From an uncultured Chloroflexia bacterium (GTDB taxonomy: Bacteria > Chloroflexota > Limnocylindria > Limnocylindrales > CSP1-4), in the NCBI GenBank assembly GCA_963766735.1, contig CAVYBU010000008.1, forward strand, positions 319,744 to 383,743: a stretch of DNA of 64,000 bases. The letters are read 5' to 3'. The notes below the pieces were generated by a model, which did not search any database, was not told where the DNA came from, and saw only the letters and a list, made by a program, of their open reading frames with translations. Positions 11,420 through 53,469 of this stretch are shown one piece after another. Positions within the stretch are counted from its first letter, which is position 1. The number at the start of each line of letters is the position of its first letter. Position numbers and translations under genes: made by a program.

Positions 11420-11599
11420 TTCGGGCCGCGAGGTCCGAAAAGGGAGTTCCCGGATGGCACCGAAAGGAGTACCGTCTGCGCGCGACGACCGCCGCCTCGT
11501 TGTGACCGCTCACGGAGTCCGGGCAGCTTCCCGATCACCCGGCTTCGTCCCGTCGCCCGGCGCTGGTCCCGTGCGGGTGTGGACCGTCTGGGGACGGGA
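11420..11599 (+). ncRNA. Candidate structured cis-regulatory RNA (unassigned) in the leader of the SARP-type regulator
   Basis: GCGA-capped 8-bp hairpin 11420-11439; 13-bp closing stem 11442-11454/11518-11532 enclosing a GAAA hairpin and a long hairpin; further stem 11548-11560/11588-11599 covering part of the SD. Confidence 0.45.
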
Positions 11600-11609
11600 G
11601 GGGCCGGCG

Positions 11610-13621
11610 ATGGTGGACGTACCGACGACGCTGGAAGTCGCGGCGCAGGCGCTGTCCGCGCTCCTCGCCGTGTGGCTCGGCCTGACCGTCGCGACGCGCT
11701 CCAGGCTGCCAATCGCCCGCGTGTTCACGTTTCTCGCGATCGTGGTCGCCTCATGGAGCACGAGCATCCTCATCCAGCGGCTGACCACATCGGTTGAGGT
11801 CTCGGAGGTCAGCCGTTCGATCGAGGACCTCGCGGCGGCCCTCGCCCTCGGGGGCCTGGCCCACTTCGCCCTGACGGTCTCGACCGATGGGCACCCCTCG
11901 CGCCGGCAGATGACCGTGATCGGCGTGAACTACGCGATCCTCCTCGCTTTCGCGCTGCCGACCATCCTCCATTTCGAGACCACGGTGGACGTCACGCCGC
12001 CCCACTTCTCGCTGGGTCCGATCCCGGGCGCGCTGCTCGGCTGGGGATGGGTCGTCGCGCGCCTCGCGGCGATCGCACTCGGCGCGGGCTGGCTGCTGCG
12101 GGCCATGCGCGTCCAGGGTGCCAGCCCGCTCCGCCGGCGCCAGCTCGGGGCGGCGCTGGCCACGATCGGGATGGCCGGGCTCGGCGCCAGCCTGCGCTTC
12201 CTCCCCGTGATCCAGGATGCGGATCGCTGGATCGGCACCTCGTTCGTCACGCTCTCCGTCGTGTTCGCGTCGTATGCGGTCTTCGCTGCCGGACTCTTCT
12301 TCGGCCCCGCGGTGGCGTCCCGCGCCTTCCGGACCTCGGTCGTCGGCGCCGCCGCCGTGGGCGCGCTGATCATCGTGCTGCTCGGCCTCAATGTCCTCAG
12401 CACGAACCTTCTCGGCCTCGCCGGTCCGTTCCTCCCGGCTGTGGGGCTGGTCGTCATCGCGGCCATCTACGGACCCCTCGGCTCGCGTCTCCGGGTGAGG
12501 GTCTCGGGTGGCGGCTCCCGGGCGGTCGCGCGGGACCGGTTGCTGCGCGCCCTCGGCGAACGGGAGCTTGCGGTGAGCCCGGCCTCTGCGGGCGTCCAGC
12601 CCGCGCTCGCCTACGTCATGAGGGCGCTCGACGTGACGGGGCTCACGGTCTCTGCGCCCGACGGCTCCCTCGTCGCGTCCAAGGGCGCGCCGCCGGCCCC
12701 GGACTCGGTCACGCCCATCCTGCTCATGGATGGCGGCGAGCTGGTTGGGGAGATGCGCGTGGGCGAGACGGCCTCCGGTGCTCCGCTCGATACGCGCGAT
12801 CTGCGCCTCCTCGAACTGTCGGCGTCCTACGTTGCCAGCGCCTTGCGGACGGGCCGCCGGGAGGATGAGCAGGCGACCGAGCTCGACCGCCTCGCGGAGG
12901 CTCGCGCCGCCGTCGACACCCACGCGGAGGCACTCCACACCGCGCTGGTCAAGCGAAGCGATGTGGCTCCGGGCGTGCGCGTCTTTGCCCTGGGCCCGCT
13001 CCGGGTCGAGCGCGACGGGACGCGCATCGAGCACTGGGGTGGTGACAAGGCGGGCAGCCGCCAGGCGCAAGGGATGTTCGCGTTCCTCTACGATCGCGGC
13101 GAGCATGGCGTGGCCAAGGACGAGGTCCTCGAGCTCATCTGGCCGGACGTCGACCTCGAGCGCGCGGACCTCGCGTTCCATCGGACGATGGGCGGGCTGC
13201 GATCCACCCTGGACCCTGACCACCGGAAAGGCGATGGCTCGGCGGTCCGCTTCGCCCACGATCGCTACCGGCTCGCGGATCCGGTGGTCGCCTGGTCCGA
13301 CGTGGACGCCTTCCTCGGGGCGCTCGACGACGCCGCCACCAGCCGGATCGTGCGGACAGGATCCGGCTCCTCGAGACGGCACGCCGACTGTACCGGGGCG
13401 AGTATCTCGACGACTGCCCCTACTACGGCGACAGCGTCTTCGTCGAAGATCGTCGGGCCCACCTGCGGGGCAGGTTCGTCGATCTCGCCGTCGCCCTCGG
13501 GGAGGCCTACGAGGTGGGCGGCGATCGGATGTCGGCGGCGGCAGCCTTCCGGGATGCCGTCATGCGGGCGCCGGATGGGTGTCCACCCGCCACGGAGGGT
13601 CTTGCGCGCCTGGGGTTCTGA
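11610..13621 (+). CDS. Membrane-bound SARP-type transcriptional activator (multi-TM + GAF-like + wHTH + BTAD), with a single-base frameshift near 13342
   Basis: About 8 TM N-terminus; VRVFALGPLRVERDG, LELIWPD, FHRTMGGLRSTLDP, WSDVDAF. The -1 frame continues ARRLYRGEYLDDCPYYG...AAAAFRDA...EGLARLGF* (BTAD-like), stop at 13619-13621. Confidence 0.75.
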
Positions 13622-13623
13622 CA

Positions 13624-13662
13624 CCGCAGGATCACCGCAGTCCGGCCGCAGTCGTTCCGGGG
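13624..13662 (+). promoter_or_regulatory. Direct repeats with 11-bp period (CCGCAG x3 plus CCGGGG), candidate SARP-binding site upstream of the ECF sigma gene
   Basis: CCGCAG at 13624, 13635 and 13646, CCGGGG at 13657; possible -10 CAAGGT at 13674. Confidence 0.6.
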
Positions 13663-13713
13663 TGGTCGTCGTTCAAGGTGCACTTGTCAACACCACGCAC
13701 CAGAGCGACCGCC

Positions 13714-14271
13714 ATGTCCGCCCACGTCTCGCCTGCTCCGCTCGGACGAATCACTCCTCCCGCGTCCGGCCTCCCGGCCGGTGAGCCGGCCCGCGCCCTC
13801 GCCAGCTCCACGTTCGAGCAGTACCACGATGAGCTCTATCGCTCCGCGCTCCGCGCATGTCGCGACCCCGAGACCGCGGAGGACCTGGTCCAGGAGGCGC
13901 TGCTCCGGCTGATGGTCGAGGTCGACACGAGGGGTGCGCCAAGGAACGTTCGAGCGTGGCTCCACCGGGTGATCGCGAATCTGGCCGTCTCGCTCGGGCG
14001 GCGGTCCACGGTGAGCCGGCGGCACGCCAGCGCCCTCGTGAACCGCGAGGAGCCGGCCACGCCCGAGGGGATCGTGCTGGAGGGCGAGGCCCGCTCGACG
14101 CTTGCCTCGGCCCTGCAGACGTTGCCCCAGAAGGCGCGAACGGCGCTGCTGCTGGCCGCGAGCGGCTACCGCGGGGCGGAGATCGCGGCGATGATCGGCA
14201 GCTCGGACTGCGCGACCCGCACGATGATGAGCCGGGCCCGGCTCAAGCTCCGCGACCAGGTCGCCGCATGA
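13714..14271 (+). CDS. ECF-type sigma-70 factor
   Basis: Region 2 AEDLVQEALLRL / RAWLHRVIANL; region 4 LPQKARTALLL...EIAAMIG...SRARLKLR. Confidence 0.9.
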   Translation: MSAHVSPAPLGRITPPASGLPAGEPARALASSTFEQYHDELYRSALRACRDPETAEDLVQEALLRLMVEVDTRGAPRNVRAWLHRVIANLAVSLGRRSTVSRRHASALVNREEPATPEGIVLEGEARSTLASALQTLPQKARTALLLAASGYRGAEIAAMIGSSDCATRTMMSRARLKLRDQVAA

Positions 14272-14878: not shown

Positions 14879-15355
14879 GTGACCCTTCGCGAACGACTCC
14901 AGGCCGACACGACCGCAGCCATGCGGTCGGGTGACGCGCTGCGCCGCGACGTGCTGCGAATGGTCCAGAACACCATCTACAACACGGAGAAGGCGAAGAA
15001 GGTCACCCTGTCCGAGGACGAGATCCTGGGTGTCGTCGTGCGCGAGGTGAAGACCCGCCGCGAGAGCGTCGAGGCCTTCCGCACGGGTGGCCGCGAGGAC
15101 CTTGCCGCGAAGGAGGAGGCGGAGATCGCCATCCTCGCCGACTACCTCCCCCAGGCCCTGACCGACGACGAGCTGGGCGCCCTTGTGGCCGAGGCCGTGA
15201 CTGCCACCGGCGCCGCCTCTGCCCGCGACATGGGCAAGGTCATGGGCTGGCTTTCCCCGAGGATCCGCGGCCGCGCCGACGGAAAGGTCGCGTCCGGCCT
15301 GGTGGCCCAGGCGCTCGCCCGCGCAGATGTGTCCGCGCACGAGGCGGGGCACTAG
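14879..15355 (+). CDS. yqeY: GatB/YqeY domain protein
   Basis: REVKTRRESVEAF, YLPQAL, DMGKVMG, ADGKVAS; follows rpsU. Confidence 0.92.
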   Translation: MTLRERLQADTTAAMRSGDALRRDVLRMVQNTIYNTEKAKKVTLSEDEILGVVVREVKTRRESVEAFRTGGREDLAAKEEAEIAILADYLPQALTDDELGALVAEAVTATGAASARDMGKVMGWLSPRIRGRADGKVASGLVAQALARADVSAHEAGH

Positions 15356-15377
15356 CCCCAGCGGCAGGACCAGCACG

Positions 15378-17522
15378 ATGCTCTCCCGGACCGAAGGATC
15401 GACGATCCCCTTCAACCGCCGCGACGCGGGCCGCCTGATCGCGGCTTCCATCGTGCTGATCGTCGCGATGTCCGTGATCCTGGGCTTGGACATCCTGCCG
15501 GCCCAGACACAGCTCGAGGTGGGCAGGCCGGCCCCGGAGAACGTCTTCGCCCCGCGCGGAGGCCAGTACGACAGTGCCATCCTGACCGATGCCGCGCGCC
15601 AGGATGCCCGGGACGGGGTCGGGCCGCAGTACGACTTCACCGCCGCCCAGGCCGAGGCGATCGCCGTACAGCAGGCGCAGGCCTTCGAGCGGTTCGTCAA
15701 GCCGATCGACGACGCCTTCGCCGACGACGTGACCCCCGACGACCGCATGGTGCTCCTGGTGACGGCCATGCCGTCCCTGTCGACGGATCAGCTGGCCACG
15801 CTCGGGACCCTCCCCGAGGACCGCTGGACGGCAGTCCGCACGGAGGCCGCACGCGTCCTGGACACCCTCGAGCGCACGGAGCTGAAGGACACGCAGGTCG
15901 CCGAGGCCCGCGCCAACCTGCCGGGCCGGATGGCGGGCGACCTGACCTCCGATGAGCGTGCCCTGGCGGCGGCGCTGATCGCGCCGCTGGTCGTCGCCAA
16001 CTCCTCCTACGATCCGCAACTCACCGAGACCCGCCGGGAGCAGGCGGCTGACGCCGTCGAGCCGGTCGAGAAGGGCTGGGAGAAGAGCGACATCATCGTC
16101 CGCTCCGGCGACCGGGTGACGCCCGAGGCATTCGAGGCGATCGAGTACTTCAACCTCAACAGGGGCGGCCTCGACGTCGCGCGCCTGGCCGGGTTCGTCC
16201 TTCTGTCGCTCCTCGTGATCGGCCTGCTGCTGACGTGGACCTGGCGGTTCCGGAGAGAGTTCTGGCACCGCAACAACGTCGTGCTGCTGCTCAGCCTGCT
16301 CCTCCTGGTCGCCGTGCTTGCGCTGAAGCTGACCGCCGGGCGCACGTGGCTGCCATACGCGCTGCCCCTCGCGGCGATCGGGATGCTGGTGACCGTGCTC
16401 CTCGACGCGGGTGCAGCCATGGTCATGACCGCGCTGATCGCGGTGCTCGCGGCTGCGGTCAACGGAGCTGGGCTGGAGCTCGCCGCCTACGTGATGCTGG
16501 GTGGCATCGCGGGCATCGTCTCGGTTCGCCGGGGGGACCGGCTCATCGTCTTCGTCCAGGCCGGCTTCGCCGTGCTCATCGTCAACGCGCTCGTGGTCAC
16601 GACGTTTGCGCTGCTGGGGGACCAGGATATTCGCGGCGTTCTCGAGCTGCTCGTTGCGTCGGCCGTCTCGGCCGGTGGTTCGACCATCGTCGCCGTCGGC
16701 AGCTTCGCCGCGATCGGCTCGGTCTTCGGCATCCTGACCGTGTTCCAGCTCCTGGAGCTGGCAAACCCGTCGCAGACCCTGCTCCGCCGGCTCCTGGTGG
16801 AAACGCCGGGCACGTACCACCACTCGCTCATGGTCGGGAACCTGGCGGAGCGTGCCGCAGAGTCCATCGGCGGTGACCCCCTCCTGGCCCGCGTGGCGGC
16901 CTACTACCACGACATCGGCAAGCTTTCGAACCCGGCCGCGTTCATCGAGAACCAGGCCGGCGGCGACAACCTGCACGACGAGCTGGACCCAACGGCCTCC
17001 GCCCAGCTGCTCAAGAGCCACGTGAGCGCGGGCATCGACATTGCGTACAAGTCGGGGCTGCCGAAGGCGCTGATCGCGTTCATCCCACAGCACCACGGGA
17101 CGGCGATCATGTCCTACTTCTACGCCCGGGCGAGGGAGGCTGCTGCAGCGCCGTTCGGTGGCCTGGATACCGCTGAGGGGCGGAAGGCGGCCGAGGCGGT
17201 GGATGCCCGCAAGTTCCGCCACGGAGGCCCCAAGCCCCAGACCCGCGAGGCGGCGATCATCATGCTGGCCGACTCGGTCGAGGCGTCGGTGCGGTCCCTT
17301 TCCGCGCGCGACGAGGCCGCGATCCGCGCGATGGTGGCCCGGATCTTCGACGAGCGGATCAGCGACAACCAGTTCAACGAGTGCGACCTGACGCTCCGCG
17401 ACATCGAGACGATCCGCGAGGCCTTCGTGGAGCAGCTGCTGGGCATGTACCACCAGCGGGTTGCCTACCCGCAGAGCAAGGCCGTCGAGCAGGAGTCCCG
17501 TCGCGCCACGGACGGCACGTAG
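15378..17522 (+). CDS. pgpH: 7TM-HD (HDIG) phosphohydrolase, PgpH-like putative cyclic-di-AMP phosphodiesterase
   Basis: Extracellular domain + 7TM + PGTYHHS, YYHDIGK, QHHGT, MLADSVEA. Confidence 0.85.
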   Translation: MLSRTEGSTIPFNRRDAGRLIAASIVLIVAMSVILGLDILPAQTQLEVGRPAPENVFAPRGGQYDSAILTDAARQDARDGVGPQYDFTAAQAEAIAVQQAQAFERFVKPIDDAFADDVTPDDRMVLLVTAMPSLSTDQLATLGTLPEDRWTAVRTEAARVLDTLERTELKDTQVAEARANLPGRMAGDLTSDERALAAALIAPLVVANSSYDPQLTETRREQAADAVEPVEKGWEKSDIIVRSGDRVTPEAFEAIEYFNLNRGGLDVARLAGFVLLSLLVIGLLLTWTWRFRREFWHRNNVVLLLSLLLLVAVLALKLTAGRTWLPYALPLAAIGMLVTVLLDAGAAMVMTALIAVLAAAVNGAGLELAAYVMLGGIAGIVSVRRGDRLIVFVQAGFAVLIVNALVVTTFALLGDQDIRGVLELLVASAVSAGGSTIVAVGSFAAIGSVFGILTVFQLLELANPSQTLLRRLLVETPGTYHHSLMVGNLAERAAESIGGDPLLARVAAYYHDIGKLSNPAAFIENQAGGDNLHDELDPTASAQLLKSHVSAGIDIAYKSGLPKALIAFIPQHHGTAIMSYFYARAREAAAAPFGGLDTAEGRKAAEAVDARKFRHGGPKPQTREAAIIMLADSVEASVRSLSARDEAAIRAMVARIFDERISDNQFNECDLTLRDIETIREAFVEQLLGMYHQRVAYPQSKAVEQESRRATDGT

Positions 17523-17534
17523 GGACGCCCGGGA

Positions 17535-18152
17535 TTGCGCAGCCTCTACCTCGGCCCGTGGCGGATCGACGTCGAGTGGCGCGACGACGTTCCGCGGCTG
17601 CTCCCGGCCACCGTCATTGCGCGAACTGCGGCCGCCGCCCTGGATGTCGCGGGCGCGCCCGGCCCCGCGTCGCTGGGCCTGATCCTCACGGACGACGCGG
17701 AGCTGGCGGAGCTCAACGCGGCCCACATGGGCAAGGATGGCCCGACGGACGTGCTGTCGTTTCCGCTCCTGCCGCCGGCGACGTACCCGCCGCATCCCGG
17801 CAGGGCAGCGGCCGGCGCGGCTGCCGACGAGGCCGGTGACGCGTTCGATGACGAGGCCGACGCCGATCCATCGGTGGCTTTCCGGCTCCCGCCCGGCGCG
17901 CGCACGCACCTGGGCGACATCGTGGTGTCCGTGGAGCGGGCGGTCGACCAGGCGGAAGCAGGCCGCGGCGGCCAGACTGGCGACGTGCTCTGGGGGGCCC
18001 GCGATGAGCTGCGCCTGCTCGTGACCCACGGCACGCTCCACGTCTGCGGCTGGGACCACGCGGAACCGGACGAGGAGGCGGCGATGCGCGCGCTCGAACG
18101 CGGTCTCCTGGACGGCGGCGAGCTGCCGATGAGAGAGCCGCTCCGGCCCTGA
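17535..18152 (+). CDS. ybeY: rRNA maturation endoribonuclease YbeY
   Basis: PTDVLSFP, LGDIVVS, HGTLHVCGWDH. Confidence 0.92.
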   Translation: MRSLYLGPWRIDVEWRDDVPRLLPATVIARTAAAALDVAGAPGPASLGLILTDDAELAELNAAHMGKDGPTDVLSFPLLPPATYPPHPGRAAAGAAADEAGDAFDDEADADPSVAFRLPPGARTHLGDIVVSVERAVDQAEAGRGGQTGDVLWGARDELRLLVTHGTLHVCGWDHAEPDEEAAMRALERGLLDGGELPMREPLRP

Positions 18153-24906: not shown

Positions 24907-25569
24907 TTGAAACTCCTTCTCACGTCCGCCGGGATCACGAACTCGAGCATTCGAGCCGCCCTGCTTGACATCCTGGGCAAGCCGATCGAGGCGTGCACCG
25001 CCCTCGCCAACTCCACGGCGAGCTATCCGCTCCGGCGCGGCCCGCAGCTCGCGTGGAACTTCATCGCCGGCGAGCAGCCCCAGACCCCGATGGCCGAGCT
25101 CGGCTGGAAGTCTGTCGGCGTCCTCGAGCTCACGGCGCTGCCCAGCATCGCGCGAGCCGTCTGGCTCCCCCGTGTCGAGGAGGCCGACGTTCTGCTCGTG
25201 AACGGCGGCGACACGATCTACCTCGACCGCTGGATGCGCGCGTCCGGGCTGGCAGAGCTCCTGCCTTCGCTCGATCTCGTGTACGTGGGACTCAGCGCCG
25301 GGAGCCTGGTCATGTCGCCATCCGTCGCGGACGACTTCGCTTCCTGGACCCGCCCTGTCGGGGGCGAAGGGCTGGGCCTCGTCGACTTCGAGATCTTCCC
25401 GCACCTCGACAACCCCGATCTACCGGAGAACACCATGGCCGATGCGGAGCGGTGGGCGGCCAGCCTGACAGGGCCCGGCTACGCGATCGACGACGAGACC
25501 GCGATCAAGGTGGTCGATGGGGTCGCCGACGTGATCTCGGAGGGGCACTGGCGGCTGTTCGAGGCGTAG
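24907..25569 (+). CDS. Peptidase E (S51)-like, type 1 glutamine amidotransferase-like protein
   Basis: KLLLTSAG, VNGGDT, YVGLSAGS, FPHL, YAIDDETA. Confidence 0.88.
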   Translation: MKLLLTSAGITNSSIRAALLDILGKPIEACTALANSTASYPLRRGPQLAWNFIAGEQPQTPMAELGWKSVGVLELTALPSIARAVWLPRVEEADVLLVNGGDTIYLDRWMRASGLAELLPSLDLVYVGLSAGSLVMSPSVADDFASWTRPVGGEGLGLVDFEIFPHLDNPDLPENTMADAERWAASLTGPGYAIDDETAIKVVDGVADVISEGHWRLFEA

Positions 25570-25965
25570 TGCCGTCCCGCGCCGGTTGACGCGTCAGCCG
25601 ACACCGGCGCTCACGACCGCCAGCGCGGCGGCGCTGGTCCTCGTGTCGCCCGTGGGAACCATCGCCAACCTCGCTCGTCTCGATCGCTTGGGACACGTGA
25701 TCTGGACCGGCGAACCACCGACCACGACCTCGGGCGATCAATGCGTCGGCTCCGTAGCGGGTGATCCGCTGGTGGTGTCCAGCTTCTCCGGCTTGGAAGG
25801 AGCCATCAGTCCGTTGACAGGCAGCGTGCTTTCGCCGGTCCTTCCGAGCGACATCCGCTCACGCTCGCGGACCTCGGGGTGGCCTCTCGTGCGGTCGGAT
25901 CCGCTTCGACGACCGAGCCGTTTGCCTCTAGCGCTCGACACCGGCTCGCCCGAGCCTTCGCAGCG

Positions 25966-26042
25966 GAGCGGGAGGCTCAGACGCGCGGCCCATCACCCAC
26001 GGCCGCCGGGACCGCGCCGAGCCACTGGCGAGACCGACCCGA
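25966..26042 (+). ncRNA. c-di-GMP-II-like variant riboswitch (GAG-type 3' segment)
   Basis: GGAGG...AGAC-GCGCGG (pseudoknot partner CCGCGC)...GGC-CGCC...GAGCCACTGGCG-AG-ACCGACC. It parallels the canonical GGGCAC...GAGYYAGUAGUGCAACCGACC layout and lies ~25 nt upstream of an ATG. Confidence 0.65.
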
Positions 26043-26066
26043 CTGTCCTCTGCAGGAGGGTTTCAC

Positions 26067-26423
26067 ATGGCCGAGTTCGCGTTGTTCATCGGCTGGGGCG
26101 CGACAAACCCGGGTCGCGAGATTGCAGCGACGAAGGTGTTCGGCGAGGCCGTCGCCTACTGGACCGGGCTCGAGGCGGCGGGCGAGATCGAGAGTTACGA
26201 GACCGTCATCCTCGGGTACCACGGAGGAGACCTGGCTGGCTTCGCCCTGTTGCGCGGTGACCCGGAGCGGCTGGGGCGGCTCAGCATGTCGCCCGAGTTC
26301 CAGCGCCTCACCAGGCGTGCCGCTGCCGTCGTCAAGAATGTGGGCGTCGTCAACGCCGCCCTCGATACCCAGGCGTTGCGCTGGGTGGGTGAGACCAACC
26401 AGGCGCTTGCCGACCTGATCTGA
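26067..26423 (+). CDS. Conserved-looking hypothetical protein
   Basis: AGGAGG SD; LFIGWG...GRE...GEIESYETV...HGGDLAGFALLRG. Confidence 0.8.
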   Translation: MAEFALFIGWGATNPGREIAATKVFGEAVAYWTGLEAAGEIESYETVILGYHGGDLAGFALLRGDPERLGRLSMSPEFQRLTRRAAAVVKNVGVVNAALDTQALRWVGETNQALADLI

Positions 26424-26676
26424 CGCTGGTCACCGCCTCCCGGCGGTGCACCGACACCCGGCCCCCGGGTTCGCTCCCGGCGACGAGCTCTCCTCGGAGG
26501 GTCGGACGCGCACCGGGCGTCCGGGGGCCGTCTGCCTCTGGTGTCTGCGCGCACGCGGGCGGACGCCGGCGTGGCCTTGTGCGAGCGTGATGCACCGGGT
26601 GACCGGAGCGGGGGAGCCCCTGCGCCCGGCGCCGGACGCTCCTCGCCGGGGCTCAGGGCGTTCGGGGCTCCGAGGA

Positions 26677-27669
26677 TCAGGTGATCGCCCGGTGGAGCCG
26701 CCGGAACGTCGGCCGGAAGCCGAGCCCGCGCCACGCTCGGTCGGCCTCGAGATTGGTGGACCGCCAGTCGGTCGTGATCGTCTCGTAGCCCGCGTCCCGG
26801 CCCCAGGCGAGGATCGTCTCGCCGAGCGCCCGACCGACGCCGAGGCCGCGCGCCTCGGGCAGCACCGCGGCGTAGCCGAGAAACCCCGCCCGAGCCGGAC
26901 GGATGAGGCTCGTGTTCGCGCTCGACTCCTCGATCGAACAGCCGGTCGCGGTGCCGACGACGCGGCCGCCGGCCTCGGCCACGAACGTCGTGAACCGCGG
27001 ATCGTCGAAGTCCTGCTCCAGCTCGGCCCGGACCTCCTCGATGGGCTGGATGGGGAAGTGCGAGAACACCGGTGCGAGCCGGCTGTGGCGAGGCAGGACG
27101 AGGTCGAGCTCGGCCAGCGCGGGCAGGTCGGCCCGCTTCGCGCGCCGGATGACCAGTGCGGACTGGGACACGACGCCGAACGAGGCGGGCGGCGGTTCGC
27201 GAACGGCGTGGAGGTGCTGCTGCCCGAAGTCGAGGCTGAACCAGGCCTCCACCAGGTCCTCGTCCGCGGCCGGCACCAGGACGTGCTGGTTCGCCCGACC
27301 CGCGTCCACCCACGCCTCCGCAGCAACGGCGTACAGCGCCCGGACGACGGCTGGACCGGTCGCGGCGTGTCCTGCCGCCTCGACCCAGACGTTGCCGCCC
27401 CATGTCGCCGGATCCTTCGAGATCCCGATGAGGAACCCGACGAGCGATCCACCCGCCGACGCGGCCCAGGCCGTGGCCGAGTCGGCCGCGAGCAGCGATT
27501 CGATCTCGAGCCGCGCCGCGGCGGGCGTCTCGTAGGCCGGGTCGAGCAGTGGCTCTGCCAGCCGGTGCCGGCGGTGCCGCGCGGCGAGGAGCCCTGCGGC
27601 CCCATCGAGATCCCTCTCCTCGAAGGGACGGATCTGCACGGGTCGGGAGTGTGGTTCGGCCGTCGCCAT
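26677..27669 (-). CDS. Tandem-domain GNAT N-acetyltransferase
   Basis: C-terminal AVLPEARGLGVGRAL acetyl-CoA motif; TDWRSTNLEA...GLGFRP. Confidence 0.85.
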   Translation of the reverse strand: MATAEPHSRPVQIRPFEERDLDGAAGLLAARHRRHRLAEPLLDPAYETPAAARLEIESLLAADSATAWAASAGGSLVGFLIGISKDPATWGGNVWVEAAGHAATGPAVVRALYAVAAEAWVDAGRANQHVLVPAADEDLVEAWFSLDFGQQHLHAVREPPPASFGVVSQSALVIRRAKRADLPALAELDLVLPRHSRLAPVFSHFPIQPIEEVRAELEQDFDDPRFTTFVAEAGGRVVGTATGCSIEESSANTSLIRPARAGFLGYAAVLPEARGLGVGRALGETILAWGRDAGYETITTDWRSTNLEADRAWRGLGFRPTFRRLHRAIT

Positions 27670-27782
27670 GGCCGATAGCGTAGATCCTCTGGTCGGTGTC
27701 TCGCGTGCAGCGGGGCGACTTGGGCCGTCTGCCTCTTGAGTCCGGCAGCCGTAACGCAGAGCCTTCGCTGCGTGAGGAGCAG

Positions 27783-28232
27783 ATGACCGGGGCTGAGCTG
27801 GCCTTCGCGGCGTTCGGAGTGGCCACGCAGGCGTTGCTGCTGTGCTTCTTCGCGGCGCGTCGCTGGGCGCCCCGGCTTGCGGCGCGTTTCGGCTGGGTGG
27901 CCTACGCCTTCTCCGGCCTCGGGCTGCCGCTGGGCCTGGGGCTGCTCCTCGACGGACAGACCTGGAGATTGTTCGTCGGCCCGTTGCTGATGGCCCTGTG
28001 GGCCCTCTTCGGGGCGATCGTCGACCTGTGGCGTCAGCGCCAATGGCGTGGCCCACCGGTGGTCTGGACTGTCCTCATCCCGTACGTGGCTCTCTACTTC
28101 TCGGCCCAGATGTTCCTGTGGTGGCCCCTGTGGAACATCGAGCGCGCCGCCTGGGTGCTCTTCCTCATCCTGTTCGTCGCGAGCACTGCCATCAACTTCC
28201 GCGGGCATTTCGGCGACGGGGCGGACGGCTAG
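27783..28232 (+). CDS. Hypothetical membrane protein
   Basis: About 5 Trp-rich TM segments; GAGGAG SD. Confidence 0.75.
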   Translation: MTGAELAFAAFGVATQALLLCFFAARRWAPRLAARFGWVAYAFSGLGLPLGLGLLLDGQTWRLFVGPLLMALWALFGAIVDLWRQRQWRGPPVVWTVLIPYVALYFSAQMFLWWPLWNIERAAWVLFLILFVASTAINFRGHFGDGADG

Positions 28233-29306: not shown

Positions 29307-29669
29307 ATGCCCAAGCACGACACCGTCGAGGCGTACCTGGCCGCGCTCCCGGCCGACCAGCGCACGGTCCTCGAGGCGCTTCGCGCGACGATCCGGGCCG
29401 CCGCACCCCAGGCGACCGAGCAGATCTCGTACGACATGCCCGCGTTCAAGGCCAACGGCCGGCTCCTCGTCTCCTACGCGGCGTTCACACGCCACTTCAG
29501 CCTGTTTCCCGCGAGTGGGGCAGTGCTGGATGCGCTCGGTGACGAGATCGCGCCGTATCACACGGGCAAGGGCACGATCCGGTTCACGGCCGACAGGCCG
29601 CTGCCCGAGGACCTCGTGAGCAGGATCGTCAGGGTTCGCCTGGAGGAGAACGCAGGGCCCCGTGGCTGA
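29307..29669 (+). CDS. DUF1801 (YdhG-like) protein
   Basis: VEAYLAALP, ISYDMPAFK, KGTIRF...PLP. Confidence 0.88.
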   Translation: MPKHDTVEAYLAALPADQRTVLEALRATIRAAAPQATEQISYDMPAFKANGRLLVSYAAFTRHFSLFPASGAVLDALGDEIAPYHTGKGTIRFTADRPLPEDLVSRIVRVRLEENAGPRG

Positions 29670-30207
29670 TCGGGTCCAGCTCAGGCGCATCGTCTCGGGG
29701 GAGCTCACGCCAGCCGAGCTCGCACAGATGCTGGACCTGTTCGCGGCGGCCTGGCCCGCGGCGGACTTCACGCCCGATGACGTCGACCACGCGATTGGCG
29801 GCGTGCACTGGGTGGCCGAGGCCGACGGGCGGATCATCGGGCACGCGTCGGTGGTTGAGCGCCTGCTCGAGGCTGACGGACAGCCGATCCGGACGGGCTA
29901 CGTCGAGGCGGTGGCGACGCTGCCGGCGTGGCAGGGGCGAGGGATCGCGACGCAGCTGATGGAGGCAGCCGGCGAGCACATCCGGGCCGAGTTCGAGCTG
30001 GGTGCCCTGAGCACAGCCGCCCACCGGTTGTATGAGGGGCTTGGCTGGGAGCGGTGGAATGGGCCGACGTTCGTACGCACGGCCGCTGGCTCGGCCCGCA
30101 CCGCGGATGAGGACGGCGGGATCATGATCCTCCGCACCTCACGGACGCCGACCCTTGCCCTGACCGAAGCGCTCAGCTGTGACTGGCGCGCGGGCGACGT
30201 CTGGTAG
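29662..30207 (+). CDS. AAC(2')-I-like aminoglycoside 2'-N-acetyltransferase (GNAT)
   Basis: DFTPDDVDHAIGGVH, GYVEAVAT, LGALS, RTADEDG, CDWRAGDVW C-terminus as in mycobacterial AAC(2')-I. Confidence 0.8.
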   Translation: MADRVQLRRIVSGELTPAELAQMLDLFAAAWPAADFTPDDVDHAIGGVHWVAEADGRIIGHASVVERLLEADGQPIRTGYVEAVATLPAWQGRGIATQLMEAAGEHIRAEFELGALSTAAHRLYEGLGWERWNGPTFVRTAAGSARTADEDGGIMILRTSRTPTLALTEALSCDWRAGDVW

Positions 30208-30220
30208 CGGTTCCCGACCC

Positions 30221-30787
30221 TCAGGCTCTCCTGATCACGTCGCCCACCCGCAGGGTGCCACCCGTCACGACGCGCACGTACATCCCGCGCATTCGCATCG
30301 CGCGCCCGGCCGGGGTGCTGATCCAGCGCAGCGCGTCAGCCCCGAACCGGGCGCTGAACTGGGCGCAGCCGGTATGCGGCAGCTCGCTCACCTCGAGCAC
30401 GACGCTCCCCACCGTCAGTCGGGATCCGGCGGGCAGGTTCTGCTCCGAGAGGTCGAGATCCAGGTAGAGCTGGTCACCGGCGAGGGGCCAGCGCGATCGA
30501 TCGGGCTCGATGGCTGCGAGGACGCGCGTGCTCATGAGGGTGATCTGGGCGGACGGGTCCGCGGACTTGTCCGGCATCGATCGGCTACCGCGCGTGAGCC
30601 AGGTGTCGCCGACCAGGCCGTTCGCCGCGTCCAGGACGGCGATCTCGAGGGTCTCCCGCTCGCCTGGGCCCGGCCGACCGACGATGAGCTCCAGCGGGGC
30701 GGCGTCCCGGGGCGAGGAGCGGACGTGCTCGAGATGGCGGTCCAGGTCGCGGGGCGGAGCCTGGGGGGGCGCGGGCGTCGGTTCCAT
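30221..30787 (-). CDS. MOSC domain protein
   Basis: GLVGD, LAGDQLYLDLDLS, PHTGCAQF, RGMYVRVVTGG. Confidence 0.88.
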   Translation of the reverse strand: MEPTPAPPQAPPRDLDRHLEHVRSSPRDAAPLELIVGRPGPGERETLEIAVLDAANGLVGDTWLTRGSRSMPDKSADPSAQITLMSTRVLAAIEPDRSRWPLAGDQLYLDLDLSEQNLPAGSRLTVGSVVLEVSELPHTGCAQFSARFGADALRWISTPAGRAMRMRGMYVRVVTGGTLRVGDVIRRA

Positions 30788-30853
30788 GGGGCAAGTGTCG
30801 CCGATCGCGGGGTGAGGCGTCCTGCGCGACCTTCGCCCTCGTTCGTCCCGACT

Positions 30854-31480
30854 ATGATCGACATCGTGAGCGATCCCACCCGGGTTCCCGTGGCCGTGCG
30901 GCCGGCGACGGTGGCGGACGTCCCCGCGCTGGCCGGCGTGCTGGCACGGGCGTTTGCGCGGGACCCCATGGTCACCTGGCCGATGGTCACGGACGATGAC
31001 CTGGTCCCGCGGATCCGTGCCATGTTCGAGGCGGTGGACACCGTGTTCGCCGTCGAGGGCTGGTTGTTCGAGGCGGGGGGCGGGCTTGGCGTGATGACGC
31101 TCCTCCCGCCCGACAGCGAGGCGCGCCAGGCGGAGCTGGAGGAGGCCGCCGCCGCGGCGATCGACGCTCTGGCGCCGGATGGCGGGGAGCGGTACGGGCG
31201 GATGTGGGGCTGGATCGCGGAGACGCTCCCGGTGGAACGGCACTGGCTGCTGGACCAGCTGGCGGTGGAGCCGGCAGCGCAGGGGCGGGGGATCGGTGAC
31301 GCGATGATCAGGTTCGCGATCGAGCGGGCCCGTGCCGACGGGCTGCCGCTCTACCTTGAGACGGGTGTCACCGGGAACGTGGCGCTGTACGAGAGGTACG
31401 GGTTCCGGGTGGTTCTCGAGGGGGACGCTCCCGGAGACGGACCGCACATCTGGTTCATGCGGCGTGACCCGGCGGTGTGA
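30854..31480 (+). CDS. GNAT N-acetyltransferase (puromycin acetyltransferase-like); start may be GTG 30866
   Basis: LARAFARDP, HWLLDQLAVEPAAQGRGIG, YLET...NVALYERYGF. Confidence 0.88.
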   Translation: MIDIVSDPTRVPVAVRPATVADVPALAGVLARAFARDPMVTWPMVTDDDLVPRIRAMFEAVDTVFAVEGWLFEAGGGLGVMTLLPPDSEARQAELEEAAAAAIDALAPDGGERYGRMWGWIAETLPVERHWLLDQLAVEPAAQGRGIGDAMIRFAIERARADGLPLYLETGVTGNVALYERYGFRVVLEGDAPGDGPHIWFMRRDPAV

Positions 31481-34102: not shown

Positions 34103-34624
34103 ATGTCCGCCGAGACGCTTCGCGCGAAGGTCCGCGAGATCCCCGACTTTCCGAAGCCCGGCATCCTGTTCTACGACATCACGACGGTCCTCAAGGACCC
34201 CGCGTCCTACAAGGATGCGATCGATTTGATGCTCGAGCCGTACAGGGACGAGCAGATCGACATCGTGGTGGGCATGGAATCGCGCGGCTTCATCTTCTCG
34301 GCGCCGATGGCGTACCAGCTGGGCACGGGCCTGGTCCCGGTCCGCAAGCTGGGCAAGCTGCCGGCCGAGACGCTGACCGTGGAGTACGCGCTGGAGTACG
34401 GGTCCAACACGCTCGAGATCCACCGGGATGCCATCCAGCCCGGTCAGCGGGTGCTGATCGTGGACGACCTCCTGGCGACCGGCGGCACCGTGCGCGGCAC
34501 GATCGAGCTGGTCGAGCGCCTCCAGGGTGTCGTCGTGGGCCTGGCCTTCCTCGTCGAGCTCGACTTCCTCAAGGGTCGAGAGCGCCTCGAGGACCGCAAG
34601 GTCACCAGCGTCATCCAGTATTGA
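34103..34624 (+). CDS. apt: Adenine phosphoribosyltransferase
   Basis: PDFPKPGILFYDIT, ESRGF, YALEYG, VDDLLATGGT. Confidence 0.96.
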   Translation: MSAETLRAKVREIPDFPKPGILFYDITTVLKDPASYKDAIDLMLEPYRDEQIDIVVGMESRGFIFSAPMAYQLGTGLVPVRKLGKLPAETLTVEYALEYGSNTLEIHRDAIQPGQRVLIVDDLLATGGTVRGTIELVERLQGVVVGLAFLVELDFLKGRERLEDRKVTSVIQY

Positions 34625-34686
34625 CGGCCGCGGCTCCGCGCCATGCGGCCTGAGCGGTCCCGTCCCGTGACCGACCAGCCGGCGCC

Positions 34687-36027
34687 ATGACCGACGGTCC
34701 CGAGCAGCCACCCGATCTCGCCCGGCGCCGGTTCTTCCGGCAGTTTGCGGGCGACGTCGTCACGTCCGTCGGATCGGTGCTGGGCGCGGCCCAGCTGCTC
34801 CAGCAGGAGTCCGCGGAGGCCGCGCGCGACATCCTGGGCACCACCGAGGCAACGGGAGGAGCGCCCGGCTCCACCGTGCGGGAGGAGGACGCCACGGGTG
34901 CCGGCTTCCGCGCCCCGTTCCGCTGGGACGGCGACGTCTGTCGCGTGGTGGACCAGCGCCGGCTCCCGGACGTGCTCACGGACCTGGAGGTGCGTGGGGC
35001 GGCAGATGCGGTCACCGCCATCAACGACGGGGCGCTGATCGGTTCCGCGGTCCAGGCGCAGGTCGCAGCCGTGACGGTGGCCCTGGTCGCCGGGCGCGCG
35101 ACGAAATCCCGCCCGTTCGCCCGCCGGGCCACGATCCGCGGCGCTGCCAACGCTTTGCGGATCACGCGGCCGGGGTCCGCGGCCCTCGCCGCGGCCGTGG
35201 ACCGGCAGCTGGCGCTCGTGGAGCAGCTGGGGGTGGAGGCCGACGGCGTGGCAGTGGCCGCGGCCATCCGAACCGAGGCGGAGGCGATCCTGGCCGAGGC
35301 CCAGGCGGAGCACGGGGCCTTGGTCGAGCATGGTGTCTCGGCCCTTCCCGGTGCACCGGATGAGGCGATCCACCTGCTCACGATCGGCAGCAGCGGGGCG
35401 ATGGCAGGTGGGCAGTTCGGGACCGCGCTGTCCGTCATCATGACGCTCCATCACGCCGGTCGGCCCGTGCACGCGCTGGTCGCGGAGACGCGCCCGCTGT
35501 TCGAAGGTTCCCGGGTGGCCGCGTGGGAGCTGCGCCAGGCGGGTGTCCCGTATGCCGTGGTGACGGACGCCGCAGGCCCCGGCTGTATCGCCGCGGGTGA
35601 GGTGGGCGCGGTGCTCGTGGCGGCGGACCGCGTGGCTGCCAACGGCGACGTCATCGCGATCTCCGGCTCGTATCCTCTTGCGCTGGCAGCCTCCGCAGCC
35701 GGCATACCGTTCCTGGTCTGCGCGCCGCTGACGGCACTGGACCTGGCGACCGAGGACGGCGCGGCAGCCACGATCGAGGAGGGCCGGCCCAGTCCGGTGT
35801 TGTGGGCCGCCGGGACGAGGATCGCTCCTGCCGGCAGCCAGATCCGGAACCCCCTCCAGGACCTCACGCCCGCGGCGCTGGTCACCGCGATCGTCACCGG
35901 TGAGGGCGTGCTGCGGGCGCCGTACGCGCCCGCGATCGCGGCGGCGGTTGCGGCGGCCGACGCGCGCCGGACATCGGCGGGCTTCCTGGCGCTGGTCGCG
36001 CAACGAGCCGCCGAGGCGGTCACCTGA
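34687..36027 (+). CDS. MtnA/eIF2B-family protein with a degenerate active site and an N-terminal extension
   Basis: VDQRRLP, GTALSVI, ETRPLFEGSRVAAWEL and ADRVAANGD retained; VRGAPAI, HCN and NKIG motifs not conserved. Confidence 0.8.
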   Translation: MTDGPEQPPDLARRRFFRQFAGDVVTSVGSVLGAAQLLQQESAEAARDILGTTEATGGAPGSTVREEDATGAGFRAPFRWDGDVCRVVDQRRLPDVLTDLEVRGAADAVTAINDGALIGSAVQAQVAAVTVALVAGRATKSRPFARRATIRGAANALRITRPGSAALAAAVDRQLALVEQLGVEADGVAVAAAIRTEAEAILAEAQAEHGALVEHGVSALPGAPDEAIHLLTIGSSGAMAGGQFGTALSVIMTLHHAGRPVHALVAETRPLFEGSRVAAWELRQAGVPYAVVTDAAGPGCIAAGEVGAVLVAADRVAANGDVIAISGSYPLALAASAAGIPFLVCAPLTALDLATEDGAAATIEEGRPSPVLWAAGTRIAPAGSQIRNPLQDLTPAALVTAIVTGEGVLRAPYAPAIAAAVAAADARRTSAGFLALVAQRAAEAVT

Positions 36028-36962
36028 TGGCCACGGCCGCCGTCGGCCGACGGAGCGGCATCATTGCCCGGACGACCCGGGATCGAGAAGTCCTGCGTGC
36101 ATTCCTGGAGCGGGATCGGCTGTTCTCGGCCTACGCCCTGTGCGACCTGGAGGAGCGGGAGTTCGGGCGGACCCGGTGGGGGATCGCCGCGGAGGACGAC
36201 GAGATCGTGGCGCTGGGCATGGAGTACAGCGGGCCCACGCCCCAGCCCCTGTTCCTCATGGGCCGCAGCGACGGCATCGCCGCCCTGCTCAAGGACGTCG
36301 TCCGGCCACGCGTGGCCTACGTCTCGGCCAACGAGGAGCTCCTTCCCGCGGTGACCCGTCACTACCGGGTGGACCCCGGTCCGCCAATGGTCCGGATGTG
36401 GGTCGACCGCGCCAGCTTCCAGCCGTTCCCGGCCACCGTGGAGCGACTCCTGCCGGTGGAGATCAACGACCTCAATCGCCTGTACCAGTTGGGCTTTGCC
36501 GCCTGGCTTCCGTCCACGGCCGTCGCCGAGGGTGTCTATTTCGGCATCCGGGTGAACGGGAAGCTGGTCTCCGCCGCCGGAACGCACGTCATCTCGCGGG
36601 ACGCTCGCCTCGCGGTCGTCGGCAATGTCCTGACCCACACCGAGCACCGCGGCCGCGGCTATGCCAAGGCCGTGACCTCCGCGGTGACCGGGGAGCTGCT
36701 GCGATCGTGCGACCAGGTCGCGCTCAACGTGCGGTCGGACAATCCACCCGCGATGGCTGTCTACCGGAGCCTCGGGTACGTTGAGCACTGCCGGTACGAG
36801 GAGAGGCTCATTCGCCGGAACAGCTCGACGCTGGCCGACCTCACCGCCCCGATCCGCCGCTTCTTCGCGCCGCGCCGGTCCGGCAATCCCTCTCCGGCGA
36901 CCCTCGTCACCCACGCTCACCCCATCGATCCGCCGGCGGCCGGCCCAACCGAGGAACCCTGA
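36027..36962 (+). CDS. GNAT N-acetyltransferase (FR47-like C-terminal domain)
   Basis: [34 protein letters not shown]; TGATG overlaps at both ends. Confidence 0.88.
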
Positions 36963-50545: not shown

Positions 50546-51109
50546 CTACGGCACCACGTCGATCCTCCAGTAGAAGGCTGTCCTCTCGCCGGACGGGAAG
50601 TGCAGCTCGACTTGCACACCCCACGGGCCAGCCTCGACCGGTGCCCTGAATGTGATCGGGTTCCGGGCCTGTGCGCTCCGATCGACGATGCGACCAGCCG
50701 TCCCGTCCCGGATCTGGGTCCAGGCGACGGTCCACTGCTCGGGCATGACGGCCGGGTCCAGGGTGACCAGAAGCGGCGTCCCCGCCCGCGCGTGCGCCGC
50801 GCTCGTGGGCACGATCCAGGGCGAGTCCGAGCCGAGCCCGTTCCAGAAGAACGCCCCCAGCTCGCCGGCCACCGGGCCGACCAGGCCGCCGGCGAGGGAT
50901 GCGGACGGCGGGCCCGGCACCTCCGTCGGGCGGGGAGATGGGATCGGGGTGGCGTCCGGCGCCGCGGAGCCCGGAGCCGGAGCAGAGGCGTTCGCCGATG
51001 GCCCGGGCGATTGCGGGCCGCCGACCGAGCAGGCGGCCGCCGTCAAGGCGACTGCGGTGGCCAGGATGGCGGTGGTGATGCTCGACATGAGGGCCTCCAC
51101 CAGGCTCAC
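50546..51109 (-). CDS. Hypothetical lipoprotein
   Basis: ALTAAAC lipobox, Pro-rich linker; 4-nt overlap with the upstream gene. Confidence 0.7.
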   Translation of the reverse strand: MSLVEALMSSITTAILATAVALTAAACSVGGPQSPGPSANASAPAPGSAAPDATPIPSPRPTEVPGPPSASLAGGLVGPVAGELGAFFWNGLGSDSPWIVPTSAAHARAGTPLLVTLDPAVMPEQWTVAWTQIRDGTAGRIVDRSAQARNPITFRAPVEAGPWGVQVELHFPSGERTAFYWRIDVVP

Positions 51110-52167
51110 TGGCCTGCGGCCTGGACGGACAGCGGGCAGATCTTCTGGGTGCAGCCCGCCGCCACCGCGATCCTGACAGCGGCGGAGGTCGACGTTCGTG
51201 TGCCCTCCGTCGACGTCGTGCGGTAGGCCGCGCGGTAGTCGCCGCTGCCGCGCATCGTGATGCTCGTGACGTAGGACCCCGCCGTGGCTCCCGACTTGAG
51301 GGTCAGTGCGTCCGTCCAGCTGCCCCCGCTGAGTCGCTGGAGGACGACCACCCGCCCGGCCATGGGGTTGTTCGACAGGCGTCCGCCGCCGGCGCTGGTC
51401 AAGGTGGCGGTGAAGGTGACCGTGGATCCGGCGACCACGCTTGTGGGTGCCGCGGCGAGCGTGGTCCGGGTCGGGACGTCCAGGCAGGTGCTGTAGGGGG
51501 TGGTCCAGGTGGCGACGTCGTACTGCTGCTGGAGGGTCGCCACGTCGCAGCGACCGAACACGTGGGCGTTCCAGCCGACTTTGGCCTTGGCGTGCGTGTA
51601 GGTCTGGACGACGGCGTCCTTGTAGTCGCTGTCGTCTGCGAAGTTGACGTGGTGGTCCAGGCCTAGCACATGCCCCAGCTCGTCCAGCATCACGTTCTCA
51701 GCGTCGTAGCATCCGGTCGGGTCGCCGTTCATCTCGCACCACCGGAGGGTGCCCCAGTCGAAGCGGTGCCCGTTCTCCCGCAACGAGATGGCGAACCAGG
51801 TCGGCGCGTCGCGGCGGAAGCAGGCCAGCCCGTTGACCCCGCACGGGACGTCGACGCCGTAGTAGACGGTGTTGCTGCCGGCCGTGTCGTAGGTGAACGT
51901 GGGCGCCTTCGACTTGCGCGACGCGTTCGAGTCTGCGGCGGCATCGTTGATCGCCGTGCGCATTGCGGCTGGCGGGGTGCCGCCGGTGGCCCACTTGAAG
52001 CGCAGGTTCGCGTTCTGGGCGAAGAGCCCGCCGGCCAGCACCGGATCCGGGCTGTGAGCGCCGGCCGGACCGGGCGCCCCGGCCACGAGGCCAAACAGGG
52101 TGATTGCCGACAGGCCCGCCGCGGCGAGGCGCCGCACGGCGCTGGACGTCGCTCGTCCCGTGATCAC
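51106..52167 (-). CDS. Secreted metzincin/matrixin-like protein with DExxHxxGxxH motif and C-terminal Ig-like domain
   Basis: Signal peptide; MLDELGHVLGLDH; T-rich beta domain; several Cys. Confidence 0.7.
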   Translation of the reverse strand: MITGRATSSAVRRLAAAGLSAITLFGLVAGAPGPAGAHSPDPVLAGGLFAQNANLRFKWATGGTPPAAMRTAINDAAADSNASRKSKAPTFTYDTAGSNTVYYGVDVPCGVNGLACFRRDAPTWFAISLRENGHRFDWGTLRWCEMNGDPTGCYDAENVMLDELGHVLGLDHHVNFADDSDYKDAVVQTYTHAKAKVGWNAHVFGRCDVATLQQQYDVATWTTPYSTCLDVPTRTTLAAAPTSVVAGSTVTFTATLTSAGGGRLSNNPMAGRVVVLQRLSGGSWTDALTLKSGATAGSYVTSITMRGSGDYRAAYRTTSTEGTRTSTSAAVRIAVAAGCTQKICPLSVQAAGQ

Positions 52168-53267: not shown

Positions 53268-53469
53268 GAGGGACCTCCTCCGGCGGGGTGAACGTGGTGG
53301 CGGGAGGAGGGCGAGGGGGCCATGGTGACCCTGTCGGATCACCTGCCACTTATGTCGGGCGAGTGGCCTGGCCTCTGTCGAGCCCACCGCACGCCTGGCC
53401 GGAAGGTTGGGCGCAGGGCCGCTGGAGGTTGACTCTGCACGGCGAGCGTCCTGCCGGTACGCTTCGTCC

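Follow-up and report, generated by a model that had tools for sequence, protein, structure and literature searches.

The closest described systems to the RNA element examined here are the c-di-GMP-II riboswitches, which sense cyclic di-GMP (c-di-GMP), and their variants. Weinberg et al., in PNAS in 2017, reportedly put forward c-di-GMP-II-GAG as a candidate variant class, and variants of both c-di-GMP-I and c-di-GMP-II are said to have been proposed as possibly recognizing different bacterial signaling molecules. The GAG class was reportedly separated originally because its ligand-contacting positions differ. Here we describe a copy of this class in a 64,000-nucleotide (nt) stretch (hereafter the window) of contig CAVYBU010000008.1 from an uncultured Chloroflexia bacterium (assembly GCA_963766735.1; GTDB lineage Chloroflexota, Limnocylindria, Limnocylindrales, CSP1-4), where it precedes a gene for a protein of 118 amino acids (aa). 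We consider it quite probable that this copy (Table 1) is a functional member of the orphan GAG class, with translational output, a lean towards repression by its ligand and a dinucleotide as that ligand.

The canonical c-di-GMP-II pocket is described in PMC13715770 (2026), with PDB entry 3Q3Z as its reference. There, G-alpha is read by the sugar edge of A69 through three hydrogen bonds and G-beta by G73, with A70 intercalating, and all three nucleotides lie on the pseudoknot strand. That paper still counts four classes of cyclic-dinucleotide riboswitch and explicitly encourages looking for natural aptamers of the c-di-GMP-II type that are specific for other cyclic dinucleotides. It also illustrates how very small changes retune this scaffold: the c-di-GMP-II-Bh variant, a laboratory single-nucleotide deletion of the Bacillus halodurans aptamer, binds 3',3'-cyclic GMP-AMP (3',3'-cGAMP) with a Kd of 11.1 nM and 2',3'-cGAMP with a Kd of 460 nM. 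A natural precedent for rare hidden variants with a different messenger and different genes is provided by the c-AMP-GMP 'snuggler' variants of c-di-GMP-I, as outlined in PMC7266159. Unlike the GAG class, these have the unrelated GEMM-I fold and a known ligand.

The window element is a real copy of RF03169, the Rfam family of the c-di-GMP-II-GAG riboswitch aptamer, with a score far beyond chance. In a cmscan search all 86 positions of the model (1-86) are matched, the score being 64.2 bits (gathering score 40; E = 1.8e-10), and no second gathering-level match to any of 4227 families was found on either strand of the 64 kilobases (kb). A permissive local scan of positions 25850-26150 returned RF03169 again (E = 8.4e-13) and besides it only noise (E > 3). 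Two weaker, overlapping matches to sister families of clan CL00127 were dropped in clan competition; the canonical c-di-GMP-II model is not the best scorer of the clan here, and the GAG model is preferred to it. These results bear out the first-pass annotation, which had called the element a c-di-GMP-II-like variant from the letters alone, citing the 'GAG' variant as an example, and had named the lack of a covariance-model match and of a pseudoknot on probing as the outcome that would count against it: the dedicated model is both the best and the only Rfam match. The aptamer begins 4 nt upstream of the start at 25966 given there. By every sequence and structure criterion open to computation the element agrees with RF03169, sharing its helices, its pseudoknot, its GGCGAGACCGACC tail and its position in a 5' untranslated region, and no feature distinguishes it from the class other than an internal mismatch in helix P1. 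The class has been published and curated, and routine Rfam annotation would name the element, so it is not new. The suggestion of a new-specificity candidate holds as far as the class is an orphan; its novelty was overrated. What remains of interest is this orphan status, together with the picture of gene associations and taxonomy that the relatives of the element provide.

All the c-di-GMP-II layout motifs listed in the first-pass annotation are in place (GCGCGG at 25983-25988, CCGCGC at 26012-26017, CGCC at 26004-26007, GGCG at 26027-26030 and ACCGACC at 26033-26039), with the helix labels exchanged: in the Rfam consensus structure GCGCGG/CCGCGC forms the ordinary P2b hairpin and CGCC/GGCG the pseudoknot. 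The complementarity between the hairpin loop CGGNCGCC and the GGCG..CCG of the 3' tail, which makes up the RF03169 pseudoknot, is present in the window, with 26000-02 facing CCG at 26034-36 and 26004-07 facing GGCG at 26027-30. The tail GGCGAGACCGACC occupies 26027-39 and the run GCGAGACCGACC, which ends in ACCGACC, 26028-26039; the GAG itself (G26030, A26031, G26032) agrees with the upper-case model consensus GGCGAGACCG. P1 consists of a proximal part, CGGG at 25969-72 with CCCG at 26038-41, and a distal part, GCGG at 25963-66 with CUGU at 26043-46, which includes two G-U pairs; G25968 and A26042 are mismatched between them and A25967 is bulged. The aptamer would adopt the c-di-GMP-II fold, in which P1, P2 and the pseudoknot (CGGCCGCC loop with GGCGAGACCG tail) meet in a three-way junction, and a ligand seated between P1 and the pseudoknot would lock that fold.

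To place the window copy among its relatives, GTDB species-representative genomes were scanned for exact matches to a 21-nt tail motif, which gave at least 124 loci (cited below by L number). The pattern misses copies with divergent tails, and second copies in L018 and L061 were seen only by Rfam. RF03169 was found in 36 of the 40 loci scanned with Rfam, at 42.5-83.2 bits (the top score belongs to L031, 1608-1692), so that the window copy stands mid-range for its class. L059 and L071 are too divergent and fall below the gathering score, and L019 (Bradyrhizobium) and L029 (Acidoferrum) are chance pattern matches that have no Rfam match and were excluded when genes were counted. A MAFFT alignment was made of 98 short-type copies, the L059 and L071 rows among them; in the structure with its pseudoknot 82.2% of cells are paired, compared with 31-41% when the partners are slid by 1-3 columns. 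Changes on both sides occur at 12 of 27 pairs, and the observed values were reached by none of 500 shuffles. Pairing reaches 93.5% in P2a (helix 2) and 87.6% in P2b (helices 3-4), where five of seven pairs show both-side changes, and the inner five pairs of P1 form in 63-96 of the 98 rows. The CGCC/GGCG pseudoknot (helices 5-6) is paired in 91-98 rows with its 3' side fixed by the search pattern; its support among relatives is best described as conservation without covariation, the 3' 21 nt being invariant by construction.

Two features of the locus weigh against a working switch. P1 in the window is short, with four pairs, a mismatch and four weak pairs, and no sigma-70-like promoter site was found in 25500-26600. 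Together with truncated copies elsewhere, these would fit a locus that is no working ligand sensor but a decaying copy or an RNA structure bound by a protein. One truncated copy, at L060:3003-3064 (-), covers model positions 13-75 only and has no P1; another, at L070:1438-1532 (-), retains only the 3' half, from GGGACCGCGCC on, and lies 159 nt before an SRPBCC gene. However, the nearly invariant core positions of the 98 relatives are all intact in the window, the score is mid-range for the class, and the pairing of aptamer and gene is kept in three other genomes whose proteins are 52-61% identical (one unscored). We therefore think it very improbable that the window copy is not a working sensor. 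Among the 98 short-type copies, 39 carry a -10-like box (TANNNT or GA[GC]AAT; e.g. GGGACAAT or TACGGT), most often 17 nt before the GGG of P1. From such a position, transcripts of those copies would begin right at the aptamer. By the same rule no such box was found at 25925-25969 of the window.

The arrangement downstream of the aptamer points to control of translation. The aptamer ends 19 nt before the ATG on the same strand; a Shine-Dalgarno (SD) sequence with an anti-SD beside it lies in front of the ATG, and no terminator-like site was found in 25500-26600. The first-pass annotation had read the locus in the same way, and the pieces that it named are all present (TCCT at 26046-49, CTGC at 26050-53, AGGA at 26054-57 and AGGAGG at 26054-59, followed by ATG at 26067). 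Clostridial c-di-GMP-II examples act through a terminator or a ribozyme, and in this respect the GAG class would differ from the canonical one. As far as can be judged by analogy, the element may work like other pseudoknotted translational riboswitches.

The SD-masking hairpin proposed from these pieces holds up as a recurrent arrangement and not as an exceptionally stable fold. UCCU at 26046-49 can pair with AGGA at 26054-57, extended by outer ACU/GGU pairs, at -6.9 kcal/mol when 26042-26072 is folded alone; 115 of 200 shuffles fold as well (z = 0.30). The hairpin is credited instead because its linker motifs recur in relatives. In the 84 of 98 aligned copies that have an SD-preceded open reading frame (ORF) starting 12-75 nt after the tail, the linker contains GUCC in 41, compared with 11.5 in shuffles (maximum 23), and GCGUCC in 30, compared with 1.5 (maximum 6). 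UCC[CU] lies within 6 nt of the SD core in 34 of these relatives, compared with 1.8 in shuffles. The output would thus be control of translation initiation, with an SD that can be masked by an anti-SD starting at the end of P1.

How ligand binding would be coupled to this hairpin is a finer question, on which in silico tests of polarity conflict. Our slight preference is for a ligand that turns translation off. In the apo state, G-rich aptamer strands (GGGAGGC at 25970-76 or GGGAC at 26008-12) would sequester the anti-SD, and the aptamer, once locked by the ligand, would free it for masking the SD. In 27 of 41 GUCC-type sequences the anti-SD pairs with the SD side when the aptamer is enforced, and in 25 of 40 its best partner within the aptamer is the 5' strand of P1/P2a, the mean duplex being -10.4 kcal/mol with the aptamer partner versus -6.6 kcal/mol with the SD side. 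In the window, the probability that the SD is unpaired is 0.14 with the aptamer enforced versus 0.40 unconstrained. Several results weigh against this polarity or against the hairpin behind it, beginning with the unexceptional energy of the window hairpin noted above. Anti-SDs match the aptamer no better than their shuffled versions do (mean z = -0.42), the proposed apo pairing is predicted to be less stable than the aptamer helices, and across the 84 relatives mean SD accessibility rises from 0.45 to 0.55 with the aptamer enforced (29 up, 11 down, 44 within 0.2), a comparison that is biased upward because enforcing a fold removes pairing partners.

Alternatively, the ligand could turn translation on, which we rate somewhat below an even chance. 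Here the 3' strand of P1 and the pseudoknot (GACCC at 26036-40 and CUGU at 26043-46) would pair in the apo state with GCAG and GGGUU (26052-62), burying the SD until ligand binding frees it. The unconstrained minimum free energy fold of the window sequence contains exactly this hairpin, and 26032-26072 folds at -13.1 kcal/mol. The rise in SD accessibility among relatives is in the direction expected (Wilcoxon p = 2e-4), the P1 3' strand is clearly complementary to the SD region in L014, L057 and L104, and 6 of 27 long-type or partial copies have a downstream complement of the tail with z < -1.5. However, short-type tails match the downstream 65 nt no better than shuffles do (mean z = 0.04, n = 97; window z = +0.94), and the -13.1 kcal/mol hairpin has a z of only -0.98, with 31 of 200 shuffles as stable. 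Activation would also leave the conserved GCGUCC anti-SD without a role, and the anti-SD would still mask the SD in the bound state in most GUCC-type sequences, and the window SD becomes less, not more, accessible with the aptamer enforced. In Actinomycetota-type loci such as L027, L036, L041, L049 and L112, a CGGGUCG-like stretch about 35 nt past the aptamer complements the tail and the P1 3' strand (CGACCCG), and in L112 both sides of this complement change together (CCCU with AGGG). To judge by base complementarity, these appear to be the strands of an alternative helix incompatible with the aptamer.

The genes behind the aptamers offer a view of what the class controls. Tabulating them, as the first-pass annotation had proposed, gave 125 ORFs called first after the 128 pattern occurrences, the window included; the calling was heuristic and the table is approximate, with probable wrong frames in high-GC loci such as L013, L040, L047, L097, L108, L121 and L124. 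Most of the targets are either small secreted proteins or small proteins with ligand-binding folds (SRPBCC, SnoaL and the family of the 118-aa protein). By a simple heuristic, signal-peptide-like N-termini occur in 76 of 123 downstream ORFs, the two chance loci being excluded. Pfam has no family for 49 of the 78 first ORFs that reach 60 aa and come from the window or from loci with 3-kb flanks. The families found in the others include SRPBCC/Polyketide_cyc2 (7), SnoaL-like (5), alpha/beta hydrolases (3), collagen-repeat (2), subtilase, solute-binding protein, methyltransferase, GT2, DUF4331 and DUF2339. Clusters that recur downstream are SRPBCC (7), the 118-aa family (4) and several secreted families. 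No GGDEF, EAL, HD-GYP or PilZ domain was found in these 78 first genes or in 52 second ORFs. A guanylate/adenylate-cyclase gene behind L071 was dropped as a clue to the ligand, as the gene starts 88 nt away from an element below the gathering score; the serpin locus L059 likewise lies below that score.

BldD is a c-di-GMP receptor, and a gene for a BldD orthologue accompanies the riboswitch in Nitriliruptoraceae. In L036 and L066 the riboswitch-controlled gene for a secreted protein shares a 4-nt overlap with a gene whose product has HTH_31 and BldD-like_C domains, and in L027 a bldD homologue follows about 370 nt after the first gene. In L036 and L066 bldD therefore belongs to the operon at whose head the GAG riboswitch stands. 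The L036 protein matches the DNA-binding domain structure 2ewt (E = 2.9e-23) and the C-terminal domain structure 4oaz (E = 4.4e-9), and its RGD-x8-RAGD aligns with RGD-x8-RQDD of BldD. The C-terminal RGD-x8-RxxD stretch, which we take to be the c-di-GMP-binding motif, is kept.

No ligand of the natural GAG class was found in the literature searched, in keeping with the possibly unknown ligand of the first-pass annotation. Several copies per genome before disparate genes, and bldD in the operon at L036 and L066, suggest a signalling-type ligand, most likely a purine dinucleotide second messenger related to c-di-GMP. With the canonical class the window element shares the P1/P2/pseudoknot (P4) three-way junction and the A-C-C-G of the pseudoknot 3' strand, as set out in PMC13715770. 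At the register of A69-G73 the window reads G-A-C-C-G, in which A26033 corresponds to A70 and G26036 to G73, and G26032 stands at A69; the base before it differs as well, giving 'GAG'. The reader of G-alpha thus appears to be replaced by G, and for this reason the ligand is rather likely to be something other than plain c-di-GMP. It counts against this step that the replacement is assigned by register, not by alignment to a canonical sequence. The engineered c-di-GMP-II-Bh variant keeps A64, its equivalent of A69 (PMC13715770), whereas the natural GAG class changes that position.

It is also conceivable, though in our judgment unlikely, that class and mechanism are as described and that the ligand is ordinary c-di-GMP, GAG being a structural variant of the pocket with unchanged specificity. 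The equivalent of the beta-base reader (G26036) and the intercalating A26033 are kept, bldD overlaps the first gene in two loci and lies close by in a third, and secreted or surface proteins abound in the regulon, two of them with collagen repeats. In this it resembles canonical c-di-GMP-II targets of C. difficile, namely a collagen-binding protein and a pilin, as given in PMC11477304. However, c-di-GMP riboswitches commonly precede GGDEF/EAL-type genes, according to PMC7266159, and such genes are missing from the first and second genes surveyed here, which may set the GAG class apart from the canonical one. The apparent G at the A69 position, the reported separation of the class by its ligand-contacting positions and the preference of Rfam clan competition for the GAG model also speak against unchanged specificity.

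A more specific proposal, which we advance tentatively, is that the GAG class senses another messenger, likeliest a purine dinucleotide that is mixed or contains adenine, such as 3',3'-cGAMP. A cGAMP-like candidate is suggested because the G-alpha reader appears to have become G and the G-beta reader was kept. In uncultured Limnocylindria and Nitriliruptoria this messenger might then run a sizeable regulon of secreted and small-hydrophobic-ligand-binding proteins (SRPBCC, SnoaL-like and the 118-aa family) and connect with the developmental circuit that c-di-GMP and BldD form in Actinomycetota. If the ligand proves to be another messenger than c-di-GMP, a new signalling regulon would be defined in two soil and soda-lake lineages that have received little study, and the 118-aa family would be given a function.

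The relatives add a taxonomic picture in which the GAG class is common and multi-copy in Limnocylindria-type Chloroflexota metagenome-assembled genomes (MAGs), is apparently translational, and has targets that lack c-di-GMP turnover enzymes. Among the at least 124 loci, 124 of which were listed, 90 are labelled as Chloroflexota, 28 as Actinomycetota and 6 otherwise, nearly all of them MAGs. Many of the Chloroflexota loci carry the label Limnocylindria or Limnocylindrales, and the Actinomycetota loci belong to Nitriliruptoraceae, Mycobacteriales and Frankiales. Two architectures occur: a short one of about 85 nt, dominant in Chloroflexota and the type of the window copy, and one of 99-122 nt with an extra loop hairpin, found in Actinomycetota. 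Several genomes have at least three copies, and several MAGs three to six, these being minimum values. In tandem arrays each successive gene has its own GAG aptamer, as in L049-L051 (three aptamers 1.9-2.0 kb apart on one contig), L015:2989-4457 (three aptamers) and L114-L116 (three aptamers within 2.5 kb). The 40 Rfam-scanned loci (177 kb in all) contain eight tRNA genes, spread over seven loci, namely L007, L013, L015, L020 (two), L060, L070 and L071. This density is perhaps three to four times that of an even spread, which may be chance or may hint that some copies sit in islands beside tRNA genes.

The gene behind the window aptamer is real and conserved; as a clue to the ligand, the role proposed for it in the first-pass annotation, it is weak by itself, since its family accounts for only 4 of the 125 called downstream ORFs. 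The protein has 237 homologues at E <= 0.001, almost all of 118 aa and all 'hypothetical', and a profile search yielded 860 cluster representatives (443 at E <= 1e-10). It matched no Pfam or NCBIfam family and no PDB sequence better than E = 0.24, and an ESM Atlas search returned hypothetical-protein clusters only. An AlphaFold (AF2) model, with a predicted local distance difference test score of 87.1 and a predicted template modelling (TM) score of 0.76, has a beta-alpha-beta-beta-alpha-beta core and a C-terminal helix. Foldseek matched this model to 31 PDB entries at E <= 0.001; virtually every one of those listed is a Dabb, ABM, EthD or NIPSNAP protein. The product is thus predicted to adopt a dimeric alpha/beta-barrel (ferredoxin-like) fold in an uncharacterised family. 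It resembles Dabb proteins, namely EthD (2ftr), SnoaB (3kg0), methylmuconolactone isomerase (3hf5) and the uncharacterised 3fmb, 3bn7 and 3bgu, in fold (E = 1.6e-5 to 1e-3, TM 0.5-0.66) but does not belong to them at the sequence level and has its own motif, H52-G-G-(D55) with E42, E45, R63 and R84. In 28 sequences H52, G53, G54, E42, E45, R63 and R84 are invariant, and D55 is kept in at least 90%.

The three other genomes in which this family follows an RF03169 aptamer are represented by L010, L104 and L122. In one homologue, P0050, an over-long, mis-called N-terminus is the translated 3' half and tail of an aptamer. P0050 is the only one of 23 family proteins of at least 135 aa (270 proteins in all) with such an aptamer-derived peptide, a measure too crude to give the share of the family under riboswitch control.

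Table 1. Features of the riboswitch locus and of the bldD-linked loci (positions are those of the window unless a locus number is given; MAGs, metagenome-assembled genomes)
Feature	Position	Strand	Remarks
Aptamer	25962..26047	+	full-length RF03169 match
P1 5' strand	25963..25972	+	from the Rfam alignment with its NC marks and the P1 columns of 98 relatives
P2a 5' strand, GGC	25974..25976	+	pairs with GCC 26021-26023 in the Rfam consensus structure
P2b 5' strand, GCGCGGCC	25983..25990	+	pairs with GACCGCGC 26010-26017; C25989/A26011 mismatch
Pseudoknot 5' strand	26000..26007	+	in the loop of P2b; CGG 26000-02 and CGCC 26004-07, CGGCCGCC
Pseudoknot 3' strand, GGCGAGACCG	26027..26036	+	carries the class-defining GAG, 26030-26032
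Putative anti-SD, GUCCUC	26045..26050	+	directly 3' of P1
Shine-Dalgarno, AGGAGGG	26054..26060	+	7 nt (from GGAGG) before ATG 26067
Regulated gene, 118 aa	26067..26423	+	monocistronic
Convergent GNAT gene	26677..28056	-	3' neighbour of the 118-aa gene
Long-type GAG aptamer, secreted gene, bldD	L036:1422-3337	+	Nitriliruptoraceae MAG
Long-type GAG aptamer, secreted gene, bldD	L066:1641-3096	-	Nitriliruptoraceae MAG
Long-type GAG aptamer, secreted gene, bldD	L027:2910-4616	+	Nitriliruptoraceae MAG

The window as a whole is a housekeeping stretch, with dnaJ, a radical-SAM/UPF0004 (MiaB-like) gene, ybeY, pth, mfd, metK and others, and no cyclase gene was found among its genes. A membrane protein with 7TMR-HDED, 7TM-7TMR_HD and HD domains is encoded at 15327-17519 (+), beside ybeY (17535-18149), an architecture that we take to be that of PgpH-type cyclic di-AMP phosphodiesterases; it is 8 kb away from the riboswitch and shows no evident connection to it. 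Four genes with GNAT acetyltransferase domains are found less than 10 kb from the riboswitch gene, the convergent neighbour (Table 1) and those at 29662-30204 (+), 30179-31477 (+) and 36027-36959 (+). Three long ORFs, at 11454-13781 (+), 34447-36003 (-) and 51109-53804 (-), have gene-like codon GC and no Pfam match at E <= 1e-5.

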